The notes below the pieces were generated by a model. That model made no database searches. It saw only the letters and a program-made list of their open reading frames with translations, and was not told the DNA's origin. Positions 2,700-11,200 of a stretch of 64,000 nt of DNA are shown one piece after another; positions within the stretch are counted from its first letter, which is position 1; the number at the start of each line of letters is the position of its first letter. The position numbers and the translations under genes were made by a program. This stretch comes from Candidatus Komeilibacteria bacterium (lineage in GTDB: Bacteria > Patescibacteriota > Patescibacteriia > UBA1558 > 2-01-FULL-52-15), in assembly GCA_043801745.1 (NCBI GenBank), contig JAZDLR010000022.1:1960-65959 (forward strand), written 5' to 3'.

Positions 2700-3140
2700 A
2701 TTGACTTCTTTCTGCCCCAATCATCGCACATCTGAGGGGAATTTTCAAGTTTCTCGCCCGTCTCGCCGCATCGCGGACGAGCGGGCAAGTATCAAGTGCC
2801 TCCGCCAAAGGCGGATCGCCATTTATAGATTTTAAAGGTGGGCGAAAACACGAAACCCTTCGCCCAGAGGGCGATCGCCGTTAATAGATTTTAAAGGTGG
2901 GCGAAAACAAGTTCAAGGAGTAAGTGAAAGTGGGTTGATGGGGCGGATGGGAGTAGATGGGGTGGGAAAGCGACCATTAAGCTAAAGTTCTAAGCTCCCC
3001 GCCCGACTGCGAAGCGCAGCGAGGCGGGCGGGTAAGTTCGAAATCCTAAACAATATCGAAGTTCAAAATTCAAAGTTCAATCCAGCTGAGCTCGATGGGT
3101 CTTGGGACTTGATAGAGCCAGACAGCACCGAGTCTAAATA
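2700..3140. repeat. Mosaic non-coding repeat module A2 upstream of the DUF3800 gene
   Basis: See A1. Contains an internal ~57-bp tandem duplication (gatcgcc.tt.atagattttaaaggtgggcgaaaaca at 2812-2850 and 2869-2907) and a small inversion relative to A1 (actcggtgctg vs cagcaccgagt). Confidence 0.7.
2711..2751 (-). promoter_or_regulatory. Conserved promoter-proximal element, copy 2 (about 50 nt 5' of the DUF3800 start)
   Basis: Minus-strand aacttgaaaattcccctcagatgtgcgatgattggggcaga; about 85% identical to the 1517-1556 element. Confidence 0.35.
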
Positions 3141-3180
3141 AAAACGCCCCGAACAATTTGTTACGAGACGTTCTATTTAT

Positions 3181-3530
3181 TTGTTAACTGATCGCCAAAG
3201 CTTCTTTGATCTTTTGCACCACTACGTGGTCTTGCTCCAGTCGGGAAAGACGCTGTCTTACTTCCTGAAACTCACGCTGCATTTCCACTTTGGTTGGAAC
3301 CAGCTCGAAGCGTTTATATACCTCTTCAAATCGTTTATCCACACCGTCAAAGCCCTGCTTGATCATCAGGGCTAAATCGTCGTTGGTAACGTTATGATAA
3401 ATGTTTGGCTTAGGCATTGGGATAGGTTAAATTATTAAATTCTGGTAGTCACGTCCCCAATGGACGGGTCAAACCATATCCCTGTTTGAGTCATTCTCTC
3501 ACCTCAGAGAAAATTTGGCAACTGTTCATA
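3181..3530. repeat. Duplicated ~350-bp module (small-protein gene plus conserved leader), copy 1
   Basis: About 93% identical by eye to 5219-5570. The leader contains conserved hairpins TCAAAC-agggatatg-GTTTGA and CGTCC-attgg-GGACG on the minus strand. Confidence 0.8.
3184..3417 (-). CDS. Small 77-aa protein of unknown function (copy 1), predicted helical/coiled-coil C-terminus
   Basis: ATG at 3415-3417. MPKPNIYHNVTNDDLALMIKQGFDGVDKRFEEVYKRFELVPTKVEMQREFQEVRQRLSRLEQDHVVVQKIKEALAIS. The second intact copy is at 5222-5455 with 3 substitutions, which supports a real gene. Confidence 0.6.
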   Translation of the reverse strand: MPKPNIYHNVTNDDLALMIKQGFDGVDKRFEEVYKRFELVPTKVEMQREFQEVRQRLSRLEQDHVVVQKIKEALAIS

Positions 3531-3667
3531 AAACAACTGGCTCAGTGGATCGGGCGGGTTACTAATTTGATATATTTGTTCGTCTTGCTATGCTTACTTT
3601 GGCGCTTGGAGGGCTTGGCCCTATCACGGTCAATGTTTTCCAAACCGTAACCAAGTGCCACAAGAAC

Positions 3668-3689
3668 AGCCGAATGTCGGCTTTTTTTG
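3668..3689 (+). terminator. Rho-independent terminator-like hairpin AGCCG-aatgt-CGGCT followed by T7 on the plus strand
   Basis: Read directly. No annotated plus-strand gene upstream. Confidence 0.45.
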
Positions 3690-3707
3690 TTTATCATCAA
3701 ATACCAT

Positions 3708-3735
3708 TTGACAGCCGAAATAGGCATGCTAATAT
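3708..3735 (+). promoter_or_regulatory. Sigma70-like promoter TTGACA-16 nt-TAATAT (plus strand)
   Basis: TTGACA at 3708-3713, TAATAT at 3730-3735. Followed only by a 21-codon ORF (MKKTLIEVSLYRGLFYFLTHH) that includes the next terminator; this reads as sRNA-like. Confidence 0.4.
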
Positions 3736-3755
3736 ATAGTCATTACCATGAAAAA

Positions 3756-3798
3756 GACCCTTATAGAGGTTAGTCTCTATCGGGGGCTTTTTTATTTC
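3756..3798. terminator. Bidirectional intrinsic terminator (stem cccttatagag/ctctatcgggg; T-run on plus, and a T-run on minus after the NYN gene)
   Basis: Stem-loop plus CTTTTTTATTTCTT on the plus strand. The minus strand reads AAAAAAGCCCCCGATAGAG..CTCTATAAGGGTCTTTTT. It lies 73 nt downstream of the NYN stop. Confidence 0.55.
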
Positions 3799-3826
3799 TT
3801 GACACACCATTAGGTTGTGCTATCAT
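3799..3826 (+). promoter_or_regulatory. Sigma70-like promoter TTGACA-16 nt-TATCAT (extended -10 TGcTATCAT) directed antisense into the NYN gene 3' end
   Basis: TTGACA 3799-3804, TATCAT 3821-3826. Confidence 0.4.
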
Positions 3827-3870
3827 ATATATGAATACACATAGAAAGATACCTCTTAACGGTTCCGTCC

Positions 3871-4380
3871 TTAAGCGGTATTTTTCTTTTTATACTCAAG
3901 TTTATTTCGTAAATTATCTATAAAAGCGATCTTTTCTCTGGCTGTCCGCCTAAGCAAAGTCGAGCAAGTTTTGTAGTAAGGACTAAGAACCCGGGCCAAT
4001 TTATCAGCATTATATAGAAATTTGACAACTGAATAAAAGTCACCATCGCTGGTAATTAATATGACTTGATCAAAATTGCCTTCATAGAAATCAGTGATGA
4101 TCTGCAGAACCATGTCAGCATCAACATTCCCCTTATGATTTCCGTCTGGACCGATAATGACTGGCTTAAACTTCAAAATATATCCATCTTGCTGTAAGCG
4201 GGAATACAGATCCTGATTCTCCGGAATGTAACCAAGAAACAAATAGCATATTTTGACACCATATTTTTCCGCCAAATAGACCCGAAATTTTCGATAATCT
4301 AATTTCCAGCCCAGACTCTGGATTCCTAGATTTAGGTTCTGACCGTCAATATAGGCAAAATTATTAGCATTTTTTATCAT
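3871..4380 (-). CDS. NYN-domain (LabA/PIN-like) ribonuclease family protein
   Basis: ATG at 4378-4380. MIKNANNFAYIDGQNLNLG..KGNVDADMVL..ILITSDGDF, which are NYN/LabA-like acidic motifs. The track start at 4476 is a GTG whose extension crosses the hairpin. Confidence 0.65.
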   Translation of the reverse strand: MIKNANNFAYIDGQNLNLGIQSLGWKLDYRKFRVYLAEKYGVKICYLFLGYIPENQDLYSRLQQDGYILKFKPVIIGPDGNHKGNVDADMVLQIITDFYEGNFDQVILITSDGDFYSVVKFLYNADKLARVLSPYYKTCSTLLRRTAREKIAFIDNLRNKLEYKKKNTA

Positions 4381-4384
4381 AATA

Positions 4385-4407
4385 AAACAGGGCTTTCTTC
4401 CCTGTTT
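4385..4407 (-). promoter_or_regulatory. Stem-loop AAACAGGG-ctttctt-CCCTGTTT, 4 nt upstream of the NYN start
   Basis: Same stem sequence as 2679-2698. The left flank is also similar (attttttA..ATAA.A.AAACAGGG). Confidence 0.5.
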
Positions 4408-4481
4408 ATCTGTATCCGCATTATTGCACTTCTCCTCACAATTGGCAATATGTTCCAAAATGGAACCAGCTGCCACTCAAC

Positions 4482-5114
4482 TTAACTATCCGGAATTTCC
4501 GAATAGTTGCATTTTTTGCAACAGTTGAACACGCCGAACTCATCCCAGAGCCTATTATTCCTATCCCGCAGCCAATTTTGGGGATTCTGGCGGATATATT
4601 CCCGGATTTCAATTAGCGCATCTTCATGGCGAATGATGTGATCATAAAAAGACCGATGCCAAGCAAAATCAGGCAGGCCGGATTGATGGATTGATTTGGA
4701 GGAAATGGTTTTGAAGGCGCAGATGATTTTAGATAAAAGCATATGCTGGCGATAGATTTTATATCTTCTGCAGGCTGCGGTACGGACAACCCTAGGGTTG
4801 TCCGTACGAAATCTTTCGGACTGCCCGAAAAAATCATCTGCGCCCTGCCCCCGATCTTTTATAATTATTATTCCATGCACATGATTAGGCATAATAATGA
4901 AAGCATCTAAAGCAATATAGTGCCAGCGCCTAAGCCAAAGCCAGTTCCTCCTGGCAATCCAGCCGTATTTATTTAGCTGCATCCTGCCATTAATGACTTT
5001 ACCGAAGAAATTTTCATAATTAGCAGTATTGATCGTAATAAAATAATAGCCCGGCTGACTGTAATCATAGCCCTTAAGGCGATTGGCTTTTCTCTGGGGT
5101 AAATCAAGATACAT
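4482..5114 (-). CDS. tnpA: IS200/IS605-family (RAYT-like) HUH tyrosine transposase TnpA
   Basis: MYLDLPQRKANRLKGYDYSQPGYYFITINT..PNHVHGIIII (HUH motif), about 210 aa. The C-terminal 8 codons are encoded by a palindrome. Confidence 0.7.
   Translation of the reverse strand: MYLDLPQRKANRLKGYDYSQPGYYFITINTANYENFFGKVINGRMQLNKYGWIARRNWLWLRRWHYIALDAFIIMPNHVHGIIIIKDRGQGADDFFGQSERFRTDNPRVVRTAACRRYKIYRQHMLLSKIICAFKTISSKSIHQSGLPDFAWHRSFYDHIIRHEDALIEIREYIRQNPQNWLRDRNNRLWDEFGVFNCCKKCNYSEIPDS
4484..4508. repeat. Palindromic element AACTATCCGGAATTTCCGAATAGTT (copy 1 of 2; second copy at 9357-9381)
   Basis: Near-identical palindrome AACTATCCGAAATGTCCGGATAGTT at 9357-9381. Confidence 0.6.
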
Positions 5115-5578: not shown

Positions 5579-5607
5579 TTGACAAAATGCATATAATATG
5601 ATAATAT
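5579..5607 (+). promoter_or_regulatory. Consensus sigma70 promoter TTGACA-17 nt-TAATAT driving the G+C-rich protease gene
   Basis: TTGACA 5579-5584, TAATAT 5602-5607. The 5'UTR has two hairpins: GCCCAA-tt-TTGGGC, and CCCCC-ata-GGGGG which overlaps the SD AGGGGGG. Confidence 0.55.
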
Positions 5608-5676: not shown

Positions 5677-6447
5677 GTGAAGCAGATCTGGTCGCGTTTC
5701 TTGGATGTTCTCCTGCTGGTTAGCACGAGCCTTTTTACCTGGTGGGCCATTAGGGCCATCATTACCCCCATGCTGCAGCACAACACACACCTGGCCCACT
5801 GGAACCCCAGTTTCCTGGCAACCATTGTGGTGGTGTCGGTGTTGGGCCATGAACTGGGCCATGCCTTTTTCATGGAACGCTATGGCCTGAGGACGCGGAT
5901 CTTTCTGCTCGTCTTCATTGGCGGCGCGGTCATCGATCCCAAGAAGATGGCCAAACTGTCGTGGAGCAAGCAGAGCAACATCCTGCTCGCAGGAGTTTGT
6001 GTTAACTTCCTGCTGGGTGTGATTGGTCTTCTGCTTGGACTGTTCGGCATCATCACCATCAGCACGGCCAGCATGTTCGCTCTGGTCAACGGAAGCATGA
6101 TCATCTGGAACTTGATACCCGTTGGACTGTTCGACGGAGGTCGCCTCGCCAAACTGCTCTTCAACAGCATTCCGGAACACGATGACCTCCGTGTCGCCCG
6201 GTACCTGAGTCGCGCTGTGCTGCCGGCTTTCATTGGGCTGTTCGCCTGCGCCGTGATCGACATGATCATCCCTATGACACTCATGGTCTGGGGATTTGGC
6301 TATCAGGCCACTCACGATGACCCCGAGGGCAGCTACAACCCTCTGGCCATGACCAGGGAGGACGTGAGCCGGCTGAGCTGGATCTACCTCTTACTGGTCT
6401 ACGGCGGTGCAGCCCTGCTGCTGCTCTTCGAACTGGTCAGGAAGTAA
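5677..6447 (+). CDS. Peptidase M50 / site-2-protease-family membrane zinc metalloprotease (minimal form)
   Basis: GTG start 8 nt after the SD AGGGGGG. HELGHAF (HExxH) in a TM helix and NLIPVGLFDGGR (the LDG motif of S2P). Multi-TM. G+C visibly higher than flanks. Confidence 0.65.
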   Translation: MKQIWSRFLDVLLLVSTSLFTWWAIRAIITPMLQHNTHLAHWNPSFLATIVVVSVLGHELGHAFFMERYGLRTRIFLLVFIGGAVIDPKKMAKLSWSKQSNILLAGVCVNFLLGVIGLLLGLFGIITISTASMFALVNGSMIIWNLIPVGLFDGGRLAKLLFNSIPEHDDLRVARYLSRAVLPAFIGLFACAVIDMIIPMTLMVWGFGYQATHDDPEGSYNPLAMTREDVSRLSWIYLLLVYGGAALLLLFELVRK

Positions 6448-6457
6448 GGCAACTTAG

Positions 6458-6510
6458 GAACCCGCGCTAGTATCATCCTCTGGATGAGAACGCGCGGGTT
6501 CATTTTTTTT
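6458..6510 (+). terminator. Long intrinsic terminator: GAACCCGCGC-tagta-TCATCC-tct-GGATGA-gaac-GCGCGGGTTC then T8
   Basis: 10-bp outer stem, 6-bp inner stem, T-run. Same architecture at 11148-11200. Confidence 0.7.
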
Positions 6511-6533
6511 ATTCAACAACGACTTGCCGACAT

Positions 6534-6857
6534 TTAGTGCGGAAAGCTAAACTCCCCGAGCAAAAACACGACAATAGTTATGAGGTAAATCAAAGCTAAA
6601 ATTTTCGCCACTGACCAGTCTTTATGTTTAATAACCGTATAGATGCCGAAAATTAATGACAGCGGACCGGATAAGGTAAAGATAATTGACAAAATATTAG
6701 CCAATACTTCTAGCCCGAAATTAGCTTCAATCACCTGCAGATTTCCCCTGATGGCCAAGGCAAAAATAAACTCGAAAATTAACGTGGCGGCCAGAGCCAG
6801 AGCGAACCAGATCGCCCACTGACCGGAACGGCTCTGGGGTTTAAAAGACAATTTCAT
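6534..6857 (-). CDS. Small hydrophobic membrane protein (about 3 TM), co-transcribed downstream of the CARDB protein
   Basis: ATG 6855-6857, 6 nt after the CARDB stop. Hydrophobic segments. Confidence 0.45.
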   Translation of the reverse strand: MKLSFKPQSRSGQWAIWFALALAATLIFEFIFALAIRGNLQVIEANFGLEVLANILSIIFTLSGPLSLIFGIYTVIKHKDWSVAKILALIYLITIVVFLLGEFSFPH

Positions 6858-6863
6858 AGTTTA

Positions 6864-9311
6864 TTACAGCTTGGGATAAACGGTGAAACGTTTAGTAGTT
6901 CTCTGAAAACAACTATTAATAAAAGATACTGACAGATTGTAGGAGGAATTTTTGACATCATATTTGTGCGTGGAAGTAAAATTATTACCACTATCTAAGG
7001 CCGGATGAGTATCTACCTGCCCCCAGGCAACGATAATAGGATCAAAGTAACGCGGCCCGGTACAGCCCGGGTAAGTACCCCAATAATCCATATGGCCACT
7101 AACTGTATAGGTTGCTAGACCGTCATTAGTCTCCGTGACTGTAATACTAGGATAACGGTCACCGGTTGGAGTTGTGGGCTCGGGCGTAACTACCGGATTC
7201 ACCGGTGTCACAGGCGGTGTAACCGGAGGCGTAACAACCGGCTCTGGTTCGGGTACGATTATGGTCGGCGGAGTAACTACTGGTACATCTACTTGCGGGA
7301 TTACGGGAATAGTAATATCGGGTACAGGATTAAGCACACCACCCGGAACATCAACACTGGGATTATTGGATCCGGTGTTATTATCGAAAATATAAGACAC
7401 TGGTGGGTGTTCTTGGATAAACTTCACTCTACCGGGTATCGGAGATGCTAAAGAATTATTATTCTCATTGCTTTCCCTAATCTGTGACTGCGGCGCATCG
7501 CCCGTGCCGTCACCCACGTCAACCGTGGCCTTAAATTTGGTGGCATATTTATAGGAATCATTATTACCGCAGAAAACGTCTTTCTGCGTATAGCGCTTAT
7601 TGCGTCCCAGCGTGCCCATAGTTTCATAACATCCGCCCAAACGCTCACCGAAAATGTTATACCAATCATAAGCCACCCGACTGTTTCTACTCGTGCCTTC
7701 CGTACCTTTATTAATAATAGTTACTTCCGGATGCAGATCGCTGCCGCGGAAATTCATGCCTTCAATTTTCAGATCCGGCGCCGGTAGGTCAATCGTTTTC
7801 GAATTATTACTTTCATTAGATTCGTGAACCAAATTTGAAGCCAGAGGTTCATTGGGATCCTCTGACATATCTAAAGTAACGCGCAGTTTGACTGCTTGTT
7901 CAGCAAATTCTGCCGGACAGGCACGGGCCACGGCTGTAGATGTACGACCCACCCCAAGAGATGCGACTCCAGCTCCGGAACCACAAGTATTGATCACACG
8001 ATTGTTGCTGTCCAGCCATTCAGAAACCAAGTTAAACCTCGGCGCTGTATCAGCTCTACCAGAGTTAATGAAATTAACATTACCAATGCGTTCGCCTCGT
8101 TCATTACGGGCCAGAGAAATTGACGTTATCCGCAAATCTGACAAAGGAATGGTCACTGTCTTAGAATTATTACTTTCATTAGACTCGTGAACTAGATTTG
8201 AAGCCAAAGGTTCATTGGGATCCTCTGACATATCTAAAGTAACGCGCAGTTTAACTGCTTGTTCGGCAAATTCAGGCGGACAGGCACGGGCCACGGCTGT
8301 AGATGTACGAGCTACGCCCAGCGGCTCCACACCAGCGCCAGAACCGCAAGTATTGATCACCCGGCCGTTACTTTCTAGCCATTCTGAAACCAAATTAAAT
8401 CTTGGTGAGGTAGAAAATCTGCCGGCATTAATGAAATTAACATTACCAATGCGTTCGCCTCGTTCATTTCGGGCCAGAACAATTGACGTTATCCGCAAAT
8501 CCGGCAAGGGAATACTGACTGTTTTCGAATTATTACTTTCATTGGACTCATGAACCAGATTTGAAGACTCCGGTTCATCCGGGTTCTCAGACCTGTCCAC
8601 AATCACCCGTAACTTAACAGCTTGTTCAGCGAATTCAGCCGGACAGGCACGGGCTACAGCAGTTGAAATCTCACCAAAACCCAAAGATTCTACTGCCGCG
8701 CCAGAACCGCAAGTATTGATCACCCGGCCGTTACTATCTAGCCATTCTGAAACCAGGTTAAAAAATGAAGGCGTAGAACCACGACCGGTGTTTACTATAA
8801 TTACATTACCAATGCGTTCACCCTGACTATTGCGAGCTAAAGTAAGTGAAGATATTTTCAAATCCGGCAAAGGAATGGTCACTGTCTTGGAATTATTACT
8901 TTCATTGGACTCGTGAACCAGATTAGTAGCCAAAGGATCATCGCTCTCATCTTTATCTATCGTCACGCGCAGTTTAACTGCCCGTTCAGCAAATTCAGGC
9001 GGACAGGCCCGAGCCACAGCTGTAGTTACCCTGGCAATACCCAAGGGTTCAACCGCGGCCCCAGAATCACAAGTATTGATCACCTGGCCGTTACTATCTA
9101 ACCACTCCGACATTAAATTAAACCTCGGACCAGTGGCGGCTCGACCGGCATTAATGATTACGACATTACCGATGCGTTCAGCTTGTGAGTTACGGGCAAT
9201 AGTAATGCTAAGAACCTGCAAATCTGGCAAATTTTCTGCTGCCGCCGGCGTCAGATTAGGCACTAATAAAAAAAATACCCAGAGCAGCGCGATTAGAAGT
9301 TTATATTTCAT
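6864..9311 (-). CDS. Secreted cell-surface protein: signal peptide, 5 tandem CARDB-like repeats (~121 aa each, ..NLVHESNESNNSKT..), Pro/Thr/Val-rich linker, C-terminal Cys-containing domain
   Basis: MKYKLLIALLWVFFLLVPNLTPAAA signal peptide. Repeats LPDL.V.SI.IARN..ERIGNV..IN.GR..T.PRFNL.SEWLDSNG.VINTCGSGA.VE.LG...T.TAVARACP.EFAE.AVKLRV. A PVVTPPVTPPVTP linker. Confidence 0.6.
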   Translation of the reverse strand: MKYKLLIALLWVFFLLVPNLTPAAAENLPDLQVLSITIARNSQAERIGNVVIINAGRAATGPRFNLMSEWLDSNGQVINTCDSGAAVEPLGIARVTTAVARACPPEFAERAVKLRVTIDKDESDDPLATNLVHESNESNNSKTVTIPLPDLKISSLTLARNSQGERIGNVIIVNTGRGSTPSFFNLVSEWLDSNGRVINTCGSGAAVESLGFGEISTAVARACPAEFAEQAVKLRVIVDRSENPDEPESSNLVHESNESNNSKTVSIPLPDLRITSIVLARNERGERIGNVNFINAGRFSTSPRFNLVSEWLESNGRVINTCGSGAGVEPLGVARTSTAVARACPPEFAEQAVKLRVTLDMSEDPNEPLASNLVHESNESNNSKTVTIPLSDLRITSISLARNERGERIGNVNFINSGRADTAPRFNLVSEWLDSNNRVINTCGSGAGVASLGVGRTSTAVARACPAEFAEQAVKLRVTLDMSEDPNEPLASNLVHESNESNNSKTIDLPAPDLKIEGMNFRGSDLHPEVTIINKGTEGTSRNSRVAYDWYNIFGERLGGCYETMGTLGRNKRYTQKDVFCGNNDSYKYATKFKATVDVGDGTGDAPQSQIRESNENNNSLASPIPGRVKFIQEHPPVSYIFDNNTGSNNPSVDVPGGVLNPVPDITIPVIPQVDVPVVTPPTIIVPEPEPVVTPPVTPPVTPVNPVVTPEPTTPTGDRYPSITVTETNDGLATYTVSGHMDYWGTYPGCTGPRYFDPIIVAWGQVDTHPALDSGNNFTSTHKYDVKNSSYNLSVSFINSCFQRTTKRFTVYPKL
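7630..9230. repeat. Intragenic tandem DNA repeat, period about 363 bp, about 4.5 copies, roughly 90% inter-copy identity
   Basis: Near-identical antisense ORFs 7852-8190 and 8215-8553 lie 363 bp apart. Repeated ESNESNNSKT-encoding units. Confidence 0.8.
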
Positions 9312-9356
9312 GCAAATATGGTTAATTAATTACGCGATAATTATAGCATAATTAAA

Positions 9357-9390
9357 ACTATCCGAAATGTCCGGATAGTTGTTTTTGAAC
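9357..9390. terminator. Palindrome AACTATCCG-aaatgtc-CGGATAGTT flanked by T-runs on both strands (bidirectional terminator-like); copy 2 of the tnpA-end palindrome
   Basis: Plus strand: stem plus GTTTTTG. Minus strand: stem plus TTTAATTAT. Lies between the 9412-9666 gene and the CARDB promoter. Confidence 0.5.
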
Positions 9391-9411
9391 AGCAGTGTCC
9401 TCCCGTGCCGG

Positions 9412-9666
9412 TTATTTAACCAACTTGTTATAAACCCAGGCAAAAAAACCAAAATGGCAGAAACCTTCAATGAAGCCCCAGATCACAGCCATAATCACTC
9501 CAAACCAACTCACCGAATAGCCATAGGCACTATAAAATTGCGCCAGCAAATCCGCAAAGGGCCTAAGACCGGGAATCCCAATTAGGGCAGCGATTGTCAC
9601 TAAGCCAAAGCACAGGGCACCATAAATGCCCGCGGCTAAGGCGAATTTGAGAGTATTAAGTTTCAT
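9412..9666 (-). CDS. Small membrane protein (2-3 TM), unknown function
   Basis: ATG 9664-9666. Hydrophobic segments. Confidence 0.4.
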   Translation of the reverse strand: MKLNTLKFALAAGIYGALCFGLVTIAALIGIPGLRPFADLLAQFYSAYGYSVSWFGVIMAVIWGFIEGFCHFGFFAWVYNKLVK

Positions 9667-9724
9667 ATCTTATGTTAGCTATTTAGATGCTAATTATAGC
9701 TTATTTTAGCGTTTATAGTTACCT

Positions 9725-9753
9725 CTTGACAAGGACATCAATATATGCTATTA
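9725..9753 (+). promoter_or_regulatory. Consensus sigma70 promoter TTGACA-17 nt-TATTAT for the G+C-rich two-gene cassette
   Basis: TTGACA 9725-9730, TATTAT 9748-9753. An about 75-nt 5'UTR ends in the SD GGAGGAG, 6 nt before the ATG. Confidence 0.6.
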
Positions 9754-9833
9754 TGATTTAATACTTAAGTCCTTTGAAATTCGGCTAATCACAGCCTTTT
9801 CAATGTTCACCATCCTACCCTACGGAGGAGTCA

Positions 9834-10766
9834 ATGAACTACGTGGAATTTGTTCGGACCAACAACGGTTTTGCCCAGGCCAAGTTGCAGAAGGCCGCTC
9901 TCGACATCGCCCAGCTGCTTGACAACAACGAGCTGCTGCCGGTGAATGGAAAGGACGGCTATACGCGCGAACGCCAGGCAAAGCTGCGCAGTCAGGTCTT
10001 CGATGACTTTTGCGTCGTCTGCTTCCGGGTCGGTGTGGCTGTCCCCGACCTCGAGCCCGCTCTCTACGAGGGCATGATCGAGGCACCCAAGAAGGAGCAG
10101 CTGGAGAAATTCACTGCTCTGAAGCGCCAAGTGTTCCAGCGCTTGCGCGGCCAGAACAGCCGCCAGGCCAAGGAAGCGCGCGCTCTGGTGCGCGCCATGT
10201 GCGTGTTGGCTAACTACCTGGAGGACAACTCCTTCAGCGGCGCCAAGCTGGACAACATGCTCGGCGTGCTGAACCAGCGCATCGTTGGACTCGGTCTGAA
10301 ACCGGTCCGCGACGACTACACCACCCGCGAGGTGCGCGTAAGGTTGGACGGGTCTGATCCCGGCAAGCCGACAACCGTCGTGGTTGTTGACGACTCCAGT
10401 GAGGAGCTCATCAAGACCGCACTGGCTCTGGCTGGCTGGCCCAACCTGCAGGTGGTTCTGTACCGGCAGCGACTTGAGGGCGAAGCCTACGGCCTCCGGG
10501 GTGAAAGAAAGACACAGGAGTTGAACCGGGCGGCGCAGGAGATCATGGCTTTTAACCCGGCAGTGATCCTAATGGACATGGGTCTTGCTGGTTTCGAGGG
10601 TACTGAGCTGGTTCGCCAGCTGCAGAGCCTGAGCAACAACATCCAGTACATTGCCAACACCGGCGGAACTCCTGATGAGCTTTACTCGGTCGGAGCGCTG
10701 GAGAACTGCGAAAAGGGACGAAACATGGCCGGCATGCGCCAGGCCATGAGAAATCTGGCTGCCTAA
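9834..10766 (+). CDS. Protein with a novel ~190-aa N-terminal domain fused to a C-terminal CheY-like receiver (REC) domain; no recognisable output domain
   Basis: C-terminus TTVVVVDDSSEELIK..AVILMDMGLAGFEGTELVRQLQ..YIANTG resembles the receiver acidic pocket and phospho-Asp region. The N-terminal 190 aa match nothing I recognise. High G+C codon usage. Confidence 0.5.
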   Translation: MNYVEFVRTNNGFAQAKLQKAALDIAQLLDNNELLPVNGKDGYTRERQAKLRSQVFDDFCVVCFRVGVAVPDLEPALYEGMIEAPKKEQLEKFTALKRQVFQRLRGQNSRQAKEARALVRAMCVLANYLEDNSFSGAKLDNMLGVLNQRIVGLGLKPVRDDYTTREVRVRLDGSDPGKPTTVVVVDDSSEELIKTALALAGWPNLQVVLYRQRLEGEAYGLRGERKTQELNRAAQEIMAFNPAVILMDMGLAGFEGTELVRQLQSLSNNIQYIANTGGTPDELYSVGALENCEKGRNMAGMRQAMRNLAA

Positions 10767-10805
10767 CCAAGGCCAGCCTCGGACTTTAGCGGAAAGGAGC
10801 TACAC

Positions 10806-11129
10806 ATGTTCTTGCTGTACGTAGTCCTCATTCTGGCGGGCTGGGGACTGGCTGGCGTGGCCGCCAACTACCTCCACGACTTTCTGCTCGGCAAAGGTAA
10901 GCCGGCAGGTTACGGCTGCTGTGAGGACTGGGACAAGGCTTGGGCTCAGTACCAGCACGACCGCGATCAGCGCGAAATTGCGCTGGTTGCACTGGGTCCG
11001 TTCGGCATTCTGCTCATTCTGGCGATCTGGCTGTTCTTCCAGATGATCAAGATCGCCTTCCAGGCCGTCTGCGCCGCCGTCGTTTTTCTGCGGCGCGTGT
11101 TCATCAAGCCGAGCCTGATGGCGCTCTAA
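10806..11129 (+). CDS. Small membrane protein (2 TM) with a Cys-pair-containing loop; second gene of the cassette
   Basis: SD AAAGGAG 7 nt upstream of the ATG. MFLLYVVLILAGWGLAGVAANYL..GPFGILLILAIWLFF hydrophobic segments. Confidence 0.45.
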   Translation: MFLLYVVLILAGWGLAGVAANYLHDFLLGKGKPAGYGCCEDWDKAWAQYQHDRDQREIALVALGPFGILLILAIWLFFQMIKIAFQAVCAAVVFLRRVFIKPSLMAL

Positions 11130-11147
11130 CACTGAGTGTCAACAACA

Positions 11148-11200
11148 GAACCCGCACTAGTATCATCCATCGGATGAGAACGTGCGGGTTCTTCTTTTTT
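11148..11200 (+). terminator. Long intrinsic terminator GAACCCGCAC-tagta-TCATCC-atc-GGATGA-gaac-GTGCGGGTTC then TTCTTTTTT
   Basis: Same design as 6458-6510, with a compensatory G:C to A:T change in the outer stem. Confidence 0.7.

Follow-up and report, generated by a model that had tools for sequence, protein, structure and literature searches.

A stretch of 64,000 nucleotides from a Candidatus Komeilibacteria bacterium (contig JAZDLR010000022.1, positions 1,960 to 65,959; hereafter the window, in whose own numbering positions are given) carries two copies of a 44-nt hairpin element that we read as an intrinsic, Rho-independent terminator, a cis-acting RNA that would form the 3′ end of the messages it closes. 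Its stem is broken by an internal loop, 5′-UAGUA facing 5′-GAAC, which, to judge from its sequence, is a module of the sarcin–ricin type, and this main feature of the element was overlooked in the first-pass annotation that had drawn attention to the pair. On balance we find it probable that the upper half of this terminator is a selected sarcin–ricin module endowed with a second role, be it protein docking, protection of the 3′ end or processing. Copy A closes a unit coding for a site-2-protease-like membrane protein (unit 1; the M50 protein in what follows), and copy B closes a unit coding for a 310-aa protein and a 107-aa predicted membrane protein (unit 2). The elements and their tails are laid out as follows.

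6458 to 6501, + strand: element copy A, GAACCCGCGC-TAGTA-TCATCC-TCT-GGATGA-GAAC-GCGCGGGTTC; outer stem 6458-6467/6492-6501, J1/2 UAGUA 6468-6472, inner stem 6473-6478/6482-6487, loop UCU 6479-6481, J2/1 GAAC 6488-6491
6502 to 6510, + strand: U-tract of copy A, A6502 followed by T8 at 6503-6510
11148 to 11191, + strand: element copy B, GAACCCGCAC-TAGTA-TCATCC-ATC-GGATGA-GAAC-GTGCGGGTTC; outer stem 11148-11157/11182-11191, J1/2 UAGUA 11158-11162, inner stem 11163-11168/11172-11177, loop AUC 11169-11171, J2/1 GAAC 11178-11181
11192 to 11200, + strand: U-tract of copy B, TTCTTTTTT as DNA, with the U-rich run UUCUUUUUU

Both copies are built on the same architecture, with a 10-bp outer stem, an internal loop of 5/4 nt, a 6-bp inner stem, a 3-nt loop and a U-tract; one further pair, A11147-T11192, is possible in copy B, where the outer stem would then count 11 bp instead of 10. 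With RNAfold the two-stem structure is at the same time the minimum free energy (MFE) and the centroid structure, at -28.3 kcal/mol for copy A (z = -7.0) and -27.6 for copy B (z = -8.1). The first-pass annotation had these sequences at their proper places and had rightly seen that the two units end in one and the same two-stem terminator hairpin, as well as the T8 of copy A, while omitting the A6502 that separates it from the stem. The compensatory change that it described is real, pair 6466-6493 being G-C in copy A and its equivalent 11156-11183 A-T in copy B, and the inner stem is indeed the same in both, with 3-nt loops that differ (TCT vs ATC). It had also stated that no other terminator of the window resembles these two, and this is what we observe: a covariance model derived from the pair, run with filters off on both strands of the 64 kb, gave no third copy, and a pattern search of the window with three mismatches allowed returned just copies A and B (0 in 100 shuffles). 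The ordinary terminators of the window, and those of 1.4 Mb of related DNA, are simple hairpins, unlike the element.

Two sequence features expected of an intrinsic terminator are present, a stable G+C-rich hairpin with a U-rich tract directly after it, and a position just past the point where a co-oriented gene stops; the same disposition is found in three of the related loci introduced below (L085, L086 and L092). The hairpin begins 10 nt after the stop codon in copy A and 18 nt after it in copy B, and each copy faces a convergent gene. In all these respects the element is like any intrinsic terminator. It departs from them in that its 44-nt stem is broken by an invariant 5/4 internal loop, and in that it is preserved in full between genomes whose adjoining coding sequence is synonymously saturated, whereas the sequences of terminator hairpins can normally drift freely.

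That the element is a natural one, making up a small conserved RNA family in Komeilibacteria-like bacteria of the Candidate Phyla Radiation (CPR), is established by its relatives. Homologues of the M50 protein, with 53-55% identity, are encoded in the CPR metagenome-assembled genome (MAG) GCA_964540995.1 (locus L085) and in two Logan assemblies (L086 and L087), and downstream of each of these three genes stands AAAACCCGCGC-TAGTA-TCACCA-ACT-TGGTGA-GAAC-GCGCGGGTTTT, or a sequence almost identical to it. When metagenomes were scanned with a pattern that combines the conserved outer stem and loop, a further locus came to light, L090; there, as in L092, the element reads GAAGACCCGCAC-TAGTA-CATTCTCC-ATC-GGGGGATTG-GAAC-GTGCGGGTTTTC and lies 3′ of an unrelated 211-aa membrane protein. 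A search with the L090 protein matched itself alone and did not extend the family, and two other matches of the same metagenome scan, L088 and L089, were discarded as chance matches in coding DNA. Every copy stands 8-20 nt past the stop codon of a co-oriented gene, ahead of a convergent gene, and has a U-rich tail. The covariance-model check that the first-pass annotation had proposed was run on the window and on CPR loci: the relatives score 58-83 bits, those linked to M50 genes reaching 58-62 bits with the two-sequence model, but neither of the two models found further members in 80 pyrG-anchored CPR loci (1.3 Mb), the weak matches there being plain terminators. Rfam holds no family near its gathering score, just chance matches, of at most 13 bits, to terminator parts of leader models. 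The outer-stem and loop pattern gave nothing in viral contigs, and no viral, genome or metagenome collection yielded a match to the exact pattern of the inner part, CTAGTATCATCC N3-7 GGATGAGAAC, the inner stem having turned out to be the variable part of the element.

All these relatives fold into the same two-stem structure, as MFE and as centroid, and RNAalifold independently gives the identical structure. In an alignment of five sequences standard pairs fill 97.5% of the cells, and six of the 16 pairs show a double-sided change; the covariation score is 0.431, as compared with 0.197 in shuffles (0/500 reach it) and with at most 0.11 when the partners are slid. All nine bases of the internal loop are invariant in these five sequences. 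The earlier proposal that the structure is under selection is thus upheld, since the relatives keep both stems by way of double-sided changes around an unchanging loop. A measure of the time elapsed is provided by the M50 genes themselves, which share 67% DNA identity between the window and L086, with an identity at third codon positions of 0.46 where about 0.32 is expected from composition alone; the loop has stayed unchanged over the same span, so that conservation of the hairpin far exceeds what neutrality predicts. As to the relationship between the two copies of the window, their sequences mark them as homologous, and the identity of their inner stems suggests that one was derived from the other, or homogenized with it, within this lineage. 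Copy B shares its A-U pair and its AUC loop with L090 and its inner stem with copy A, so that duplication or homogenization in the lineage is the simplest reading.

What, then, may the invariant loop be? AGUA facing GAA is one of the four canonical sequences of the sarcin–ricin motif, also called loop E or bulged-G motif (PMC1865062), and the oligonucleotide that represents the sarcin–ricin loop of E. coli, GGGCUCCUAGUACGAGAGGACCGGAGU, has the strands CCUAGUAC...GGACCGG (PMC3496166). The two loops, UAGUA/GACC in E. coli and UAGUA/GAAC in the element, are one base apart; set in their immediate context, C-UAGUA-U/A-GAAC-G in the element stands beside C-UAGUA-C/G-GACC-G in helix 95 of the 23S rRNA. 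The difference is one of setting, as the element belongs to an mRNA 3′ hairpin and is capped by a 6-bp stem with a 3-nt loop, whereas the ribosomal one is capped by a GAGA tetraloop. In the element 5′-AGUA-3′ lies opposite 5′-GAA-3′ with Watson–Crick helices on both sides, and the bases of the module are invariant while the flanking helices covary. A generic scan for AGUA/GAA hairpins (inner stem ≥ 4 bp, outer stem ≥ 6 bp), applied to 1.42 Mb made up of the window and the CPR loci, returned the members of the family and two chance matches only; being nearly empty, it shows that the combination is rare. A module of this type is expected to comprise U·C and A·A pairs, a bulged G, a trans U·A and a sheared A·G, with an S-turn of the backbone and a G-U-A base triple, and it would stack both helices into a single rod and present a distinctive docking surface.

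Several features point to an element that acts as RNA, from the sense strand. Its orientation is fixed, behind a co-oriented gene; its tail is U-rich; L090 has G-U and U-G pairs, which permit pairing on the sense strand only and would be mismatches on the opposite strand; and the match of the loop to an RNA motif is likewise restricted to the sense strand.

We may now propose how such a terminator would work. An outer stem followed by a U-tract should suffice for termination, and the G+C-rich 10-bp outer stem set against its U-tract would alone be enough to release RNA polymerase between convergent genes. The upper part, that is, the invariant 5′-UAGUA/5′-GAAC loop together with the 6-bp stem, would be kept by selection for a second job, most likely to offer a docking surface to a protein, or else to form a rigid cap that might shield the 3′ end of the transcript from exonucleases or direct its processing. 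That the loop never changes, and neither do seven of the ten outer-stem pairs, suggests a partner that reads this surface; the element may thus have a binding partner, or else a stabilizing role. A number of points weigh on the other side. No candidate binding protein has been identified, and the S-turn geometry of the internal loop is deduced from its sequence. The five aligned sequences amount to only four independent ones, the units of L085 and L086 being about 94% identical. The lack of variation in seven outer-stem pairs may be owed to a recent shared ancestor or to gene conversion of the element instead of sequence-level selection. In L085 and L086 the U-tract is broken (UUUUAUAAUAUAUUUUU) and weaker. 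Finally, the scans of public DNA used exact patterns, which relatives with an altered outer stem or loop would escape, and the search for copies in the genome of origin covers the 64 kb of the window.

A bolder proposal, which we hold to be rather doubtful, makes of the element an undescribed motif of 3′ untranslated regions (UTRs) that mimics the ribosomal sarcin–ricin loop, recruits a trans-acting factor and marks a small post-transcriptional regulon of mostly membrane-protein genes, rich in G+C at third codon positions (GC3), in CPR bacteria. The factor might be, for instance, a translational GTPase, a ribosomal protein, or a nuclease specific for structure such as the syntenic NYN-domain protein described below, and, were this true, the persistent GC3 bias would belong with the element to a single mechanism of expression or stability.

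The likeliest of the alternatives is that the hairpin merely terminates, its internal loop being an accident preserved from the recent common ancestor of the copies. The hairpin and U-tract do come straight after stop codons in a genome that makes use of many simple hairpin terminators, and the constancy of most outer-stem pairs is compatible with a young element; yet the nine loop bases are unchanged next to an M50 coding sequence as diverged as that described above, the inner stem has been rebuilt by double changes over the same divergence, and L090 has the same loop behind an unrelated gene and with an entirely different inner stem, all of which makes this explanation unlikely. The possibility that we rate lowest is a processing signal for RNase III, cleaved once so as to leave a protective 3′ hairpin on the message. 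It would be suggested by analogy with phage T7, whose RNase III hairpins (R1.1, for example) have two helices and an asymmetric internal loop at the end of early messages and are thought to stabilize the RNA upstream. The likeness is one of architecture only, some 20 stacked pairs with an asymmetric 5/4 loop between them at the 3′ end of an mRNA; the U-tract right after the stem already explains how the 3′ end is formed, and the loop sequence is unconserved in known RNase III sites whereas that of the element fits a defined motif.

Two further explanations are set at the level of DNA. The element might be a hairpin of the repetitive extragenic palindromic (REP) kind, or of the type found in insertion sequences (IS) of the IS200/IS605 group, recognized by an HUH/Y1 enzyme and mobilized by the gene at 4482-5114, which resembles a REP-associated tyrosine transposase (RAYT). 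That homologue (49.7 bits) lies 1.3 kb upstream of copy A, REPs are imperfect palindromes repeated at gene ends outside coding sequences, copies A and B form direct repeats, and a second family of hairpins also occurs twice nearby (4484-4508 and 9356-9380). REPs, however, typically flank the RAYT gene and are dispersed in many copies per genome; the 64 kb of the window, a part of a 131-kb contig, contain two copies of the element, and these do not enclose the Y1 gene, which lies outside the interval 6458-11191, as end hairpins of an IS200/IS605 element would. The RAYT-like gene is near copy A only, the loci L085 (20 kb) and L092 (11 kb) bear the element and no Y1 transposase, and the element travels with an orthologous gene in such RAYT-free loci. 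As its orientation is tied to the upstream gene and its G-U pairs, U-tract and loop motif fit an RNA of the sense strand, a mobile DNA hairpin is in our view very improbable. Hardly better placed is the idea of a recombination site of a gene-cassette system, functionally akin to the attC sites of integrons, that would end mobile foreign cassettes. The layout is reminiscent of attC, with an outer stem, an unpaired central spacer, an inner stem and a variable loop; every copy sits at the 3′ end of a compositionally odd, GC3-rich unit; unit 2 is missing in the closest relative, and the gene adjoining the hairpin has been swapped between L085 and L086. Nevertheless, the hairpin lacks the RYYYAAC/GTTRRRY core sites, its base reading GAACCCGC...GCGGGTTC; scans of the surrounding ORFs with Pfam, NCBIfam and PADLOC showed neither an integrase nor any other recombinase; no array of cassettes is present, and each unit has its own near-consensus promoter; the M50 unit is syntenic between genomes, and the block that differs between L085 and L086 is the neighbouring gene, not the unit with the hairpin. 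We accordingly see scant chance that the element is a site of this kind, and turn now to the genes that it closes.

5579 to 5607, + strand: promoter of unit 1, near-consensus (TTGACA, 17 nt, TAATAT, with TG upstream), conserved in L085 and L086
5636 to 5649, + strand: small hairpin in the 5′ UTR of unit 1, GCCCAATTTTGGGC; at the same place in L085 (about 10040-10055) and L086 (about 200-215), CGCCCACTTCGGGC
5677 to 6447, + strand: M50 protein, site-2-protease-like (Peptidase_M50, Pfam PF02163) membrane protein of 256 aa, GTG start, GC3 0.76
9726 to 9754, + strand: promoter of unit 2 (TTGACA, 17 nt, TATTAT, with TG upstream), 11/12 matches
9834 to 10766, + strand: 310-aa protein with a weak C-terminal receiver-like domain, GC3 0.77
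10806 to 11129, + strand: 107-aa predicted membrane protein, orphan, GC3 0.79
L085, 10076 to 10846: M50 gene ahead of the element, GC3 0.68, host genes about 0.45
L086, 241 to 1008: M50 gene ahead of the element, GC3 0.71
L090, 213 to 1481: genes for 211-aa and 200-aa proteins, GC3 0.76 and 0.61, host genes 0.32-0.42

These units are self-contained: each has its own promoter and a GC3-rich coding sequence, and is always closed by the element. The M50 protein has an identical entry in a Komeilibacteria MAG at NCBI; its HELGH and DGG motifs are conserved, and so are the start codon (GTG), the promoter, the ribosome-binding site and the 5′-UTR hairpin, the latter with the pattern GCCCA-NNNN-GGGC. 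The 310-aa protein also has an identical entry in a Candidatus Komeilibacteria MAG at NCBI, and a single distant homologue (37%) whose gene ends in an ordinary terminator; its AlphaFold model is too poor for use (pLDDT, the predicted local distance difference test, of 46). No homologue of the 107-aa protein was found among 1.84 billion representative proteins, and exact-sequence look-ups of the window's own proteins returned no record. The window, at about 45% G+C, has no match in E. coli genomes, and its best pyrG relatives are all Patescibacteria MAGs.

The GC3 of the units is strikingly out of line with their surroundings. Among the 61 ORFs of the window that code for at least 100 aa, only three have a GC3 above 0.6, all of them in units 1 and 2, at 0.76-0.79 against a mean of 0.457 (sd 0.073). 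The high value is even along the coding sequences and ends at the promoters and 5′ UTRs, which have 35-38% G+C, and over all loci each copy of the element closes a unit with a GC3 of 0.61-0.79 in a host at about 0.45. The first-pass annotation had called the units foreign cassettes and had derived both hairpins from one source, be it a donor genome, a phage or plasmid, or a designed part. The composition outliers are there and the copies are homologous, yet a foreign cassette from a common donor is doubtful as far as unit 1 is concerned. L085, the closest relative of the host (amino-acid identity of 80% for pyrG, 68% for L9 and 66% for NYN), has in common with the window the gene order NYN - M50 - tRNA-Gln - pyrG, and the DNA homology of unit 1 with its relatives sets in exactly at the -35 hexamer and stops where the hairpin ends, 5′-UTR hairpin, ribosome-binding site and GTG start included. 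In both M50 lineages a GC3 above 0.7 has been kept at near-saturated synonymous sites, which is not what one expects of an import undergoing amelioration, since an old import should have lost the signal. With a syntenic orthologue in the closest relative and a GC3 kept despite saturation, recent import of unit 1 from a common donor is unsupported, and this unit is better seen as an old resident. Unit 2 is lineage-specific and missing in L085. A phage or plasmid donor likewise finds no support, as the search of viral contigs with the M50 profile was negative, and so were the searches of phage and plasmid collections with the element and both proteins, while a designed part is excluded by the presence of the element in independent metagenome assemblies. 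The lasting high GC3 might possibly be explained by selection on the messages, by biased gene conversion or by repeated supply from an unsampled pool of higher G+C.

The neighbourhood of the units offers some further observations. The M50 units of L085 and L086 share, at 94% DNA identity, a block that begins at the promoter and extends some 20 nt beyond the hairpin; the neighbouring convergent gene has been exchanged, being RhuM/Fic in L085 (10917-11906) and Bro-N in L086 (1079-1885), and homology resumes at the following gene. The hairpin borders a variable slot, then, and the unit with its hairpin is the stable part. On the other side of unit 1, a gene for a NYN-domain (LabA-like) nuclease lies at 3871-4476 on the - strand, with a counterpart in L085 (932-1453, 66% identical in amino acids) that lies to the same side of the M50 unit; to see in its product a partner of the structured 3′-UTR element is pure speculation. 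The Y1 (HUH) gene at 4482-5114, also on the - strand, has REP_Tyr_transpos as its best NCBIfam match, at 49.7 bits for a cutoff of 80, with HVH and Y motifs visible and no obvious flanking REP pair. The second hairpin family, H2, found at 4484-4508 and 9356-9380, reads AACTATCCG-N7-CGGATAGTT, its two copies being 84% identical where about 0.06 chance matches are expected; each lies to the left of one GC3-rich unit, and the first extends over the final codons of the RAYT-like gene. We considered whether the units might be transposon-like modules bounded by H2 and rejected this, as H2 is absent from all 94 fetched loci, its first copy is inside the coding end of the RAYT gene, and the contents of the would-be modules are compositionally mixed. 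Between the two units, on the - strand, a gene at 6864-9311 encodes an 815-aa CARDB-domain protein with four tandem repeats of about 363 nt (121 aa) at 7795-9180, of 60-85% DNA identity, and another at 9412-9666, divergent from unit 2, encodes an 84-aa membrane protein with a sub-threshold match to phage holin_4 (42 bits, cutoff 70). Farther upstream, the regions 1-2000 and 2810-3870, around a DUF3800 gene (2023-2808, - strand), have a low density of ORFs and several promoter-like and terminator-like sites; an Rfam scan of both regions at E-value level gave no match.

Intrinsic terminators and the sarcin–ricin module are both well known; what would be new is a terminator with a conserved S-turn module, absent from Rfam. 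A docking module of the ribosomal type, kept in a terminator across genomes, would imply an additional layer of control at the 3′ end of messages, and this in bacteria that have tiny genomes and few known regulators. The motif, short and well defined, is suited to inclusion in libraries of RNA families. Its tight link to genes whose GC3 stays near 0.75 even after synonymous saturation, in hosts near 0.45, suggests either selection acting on the messages themselves or a hidden pool of genes that supplies them.

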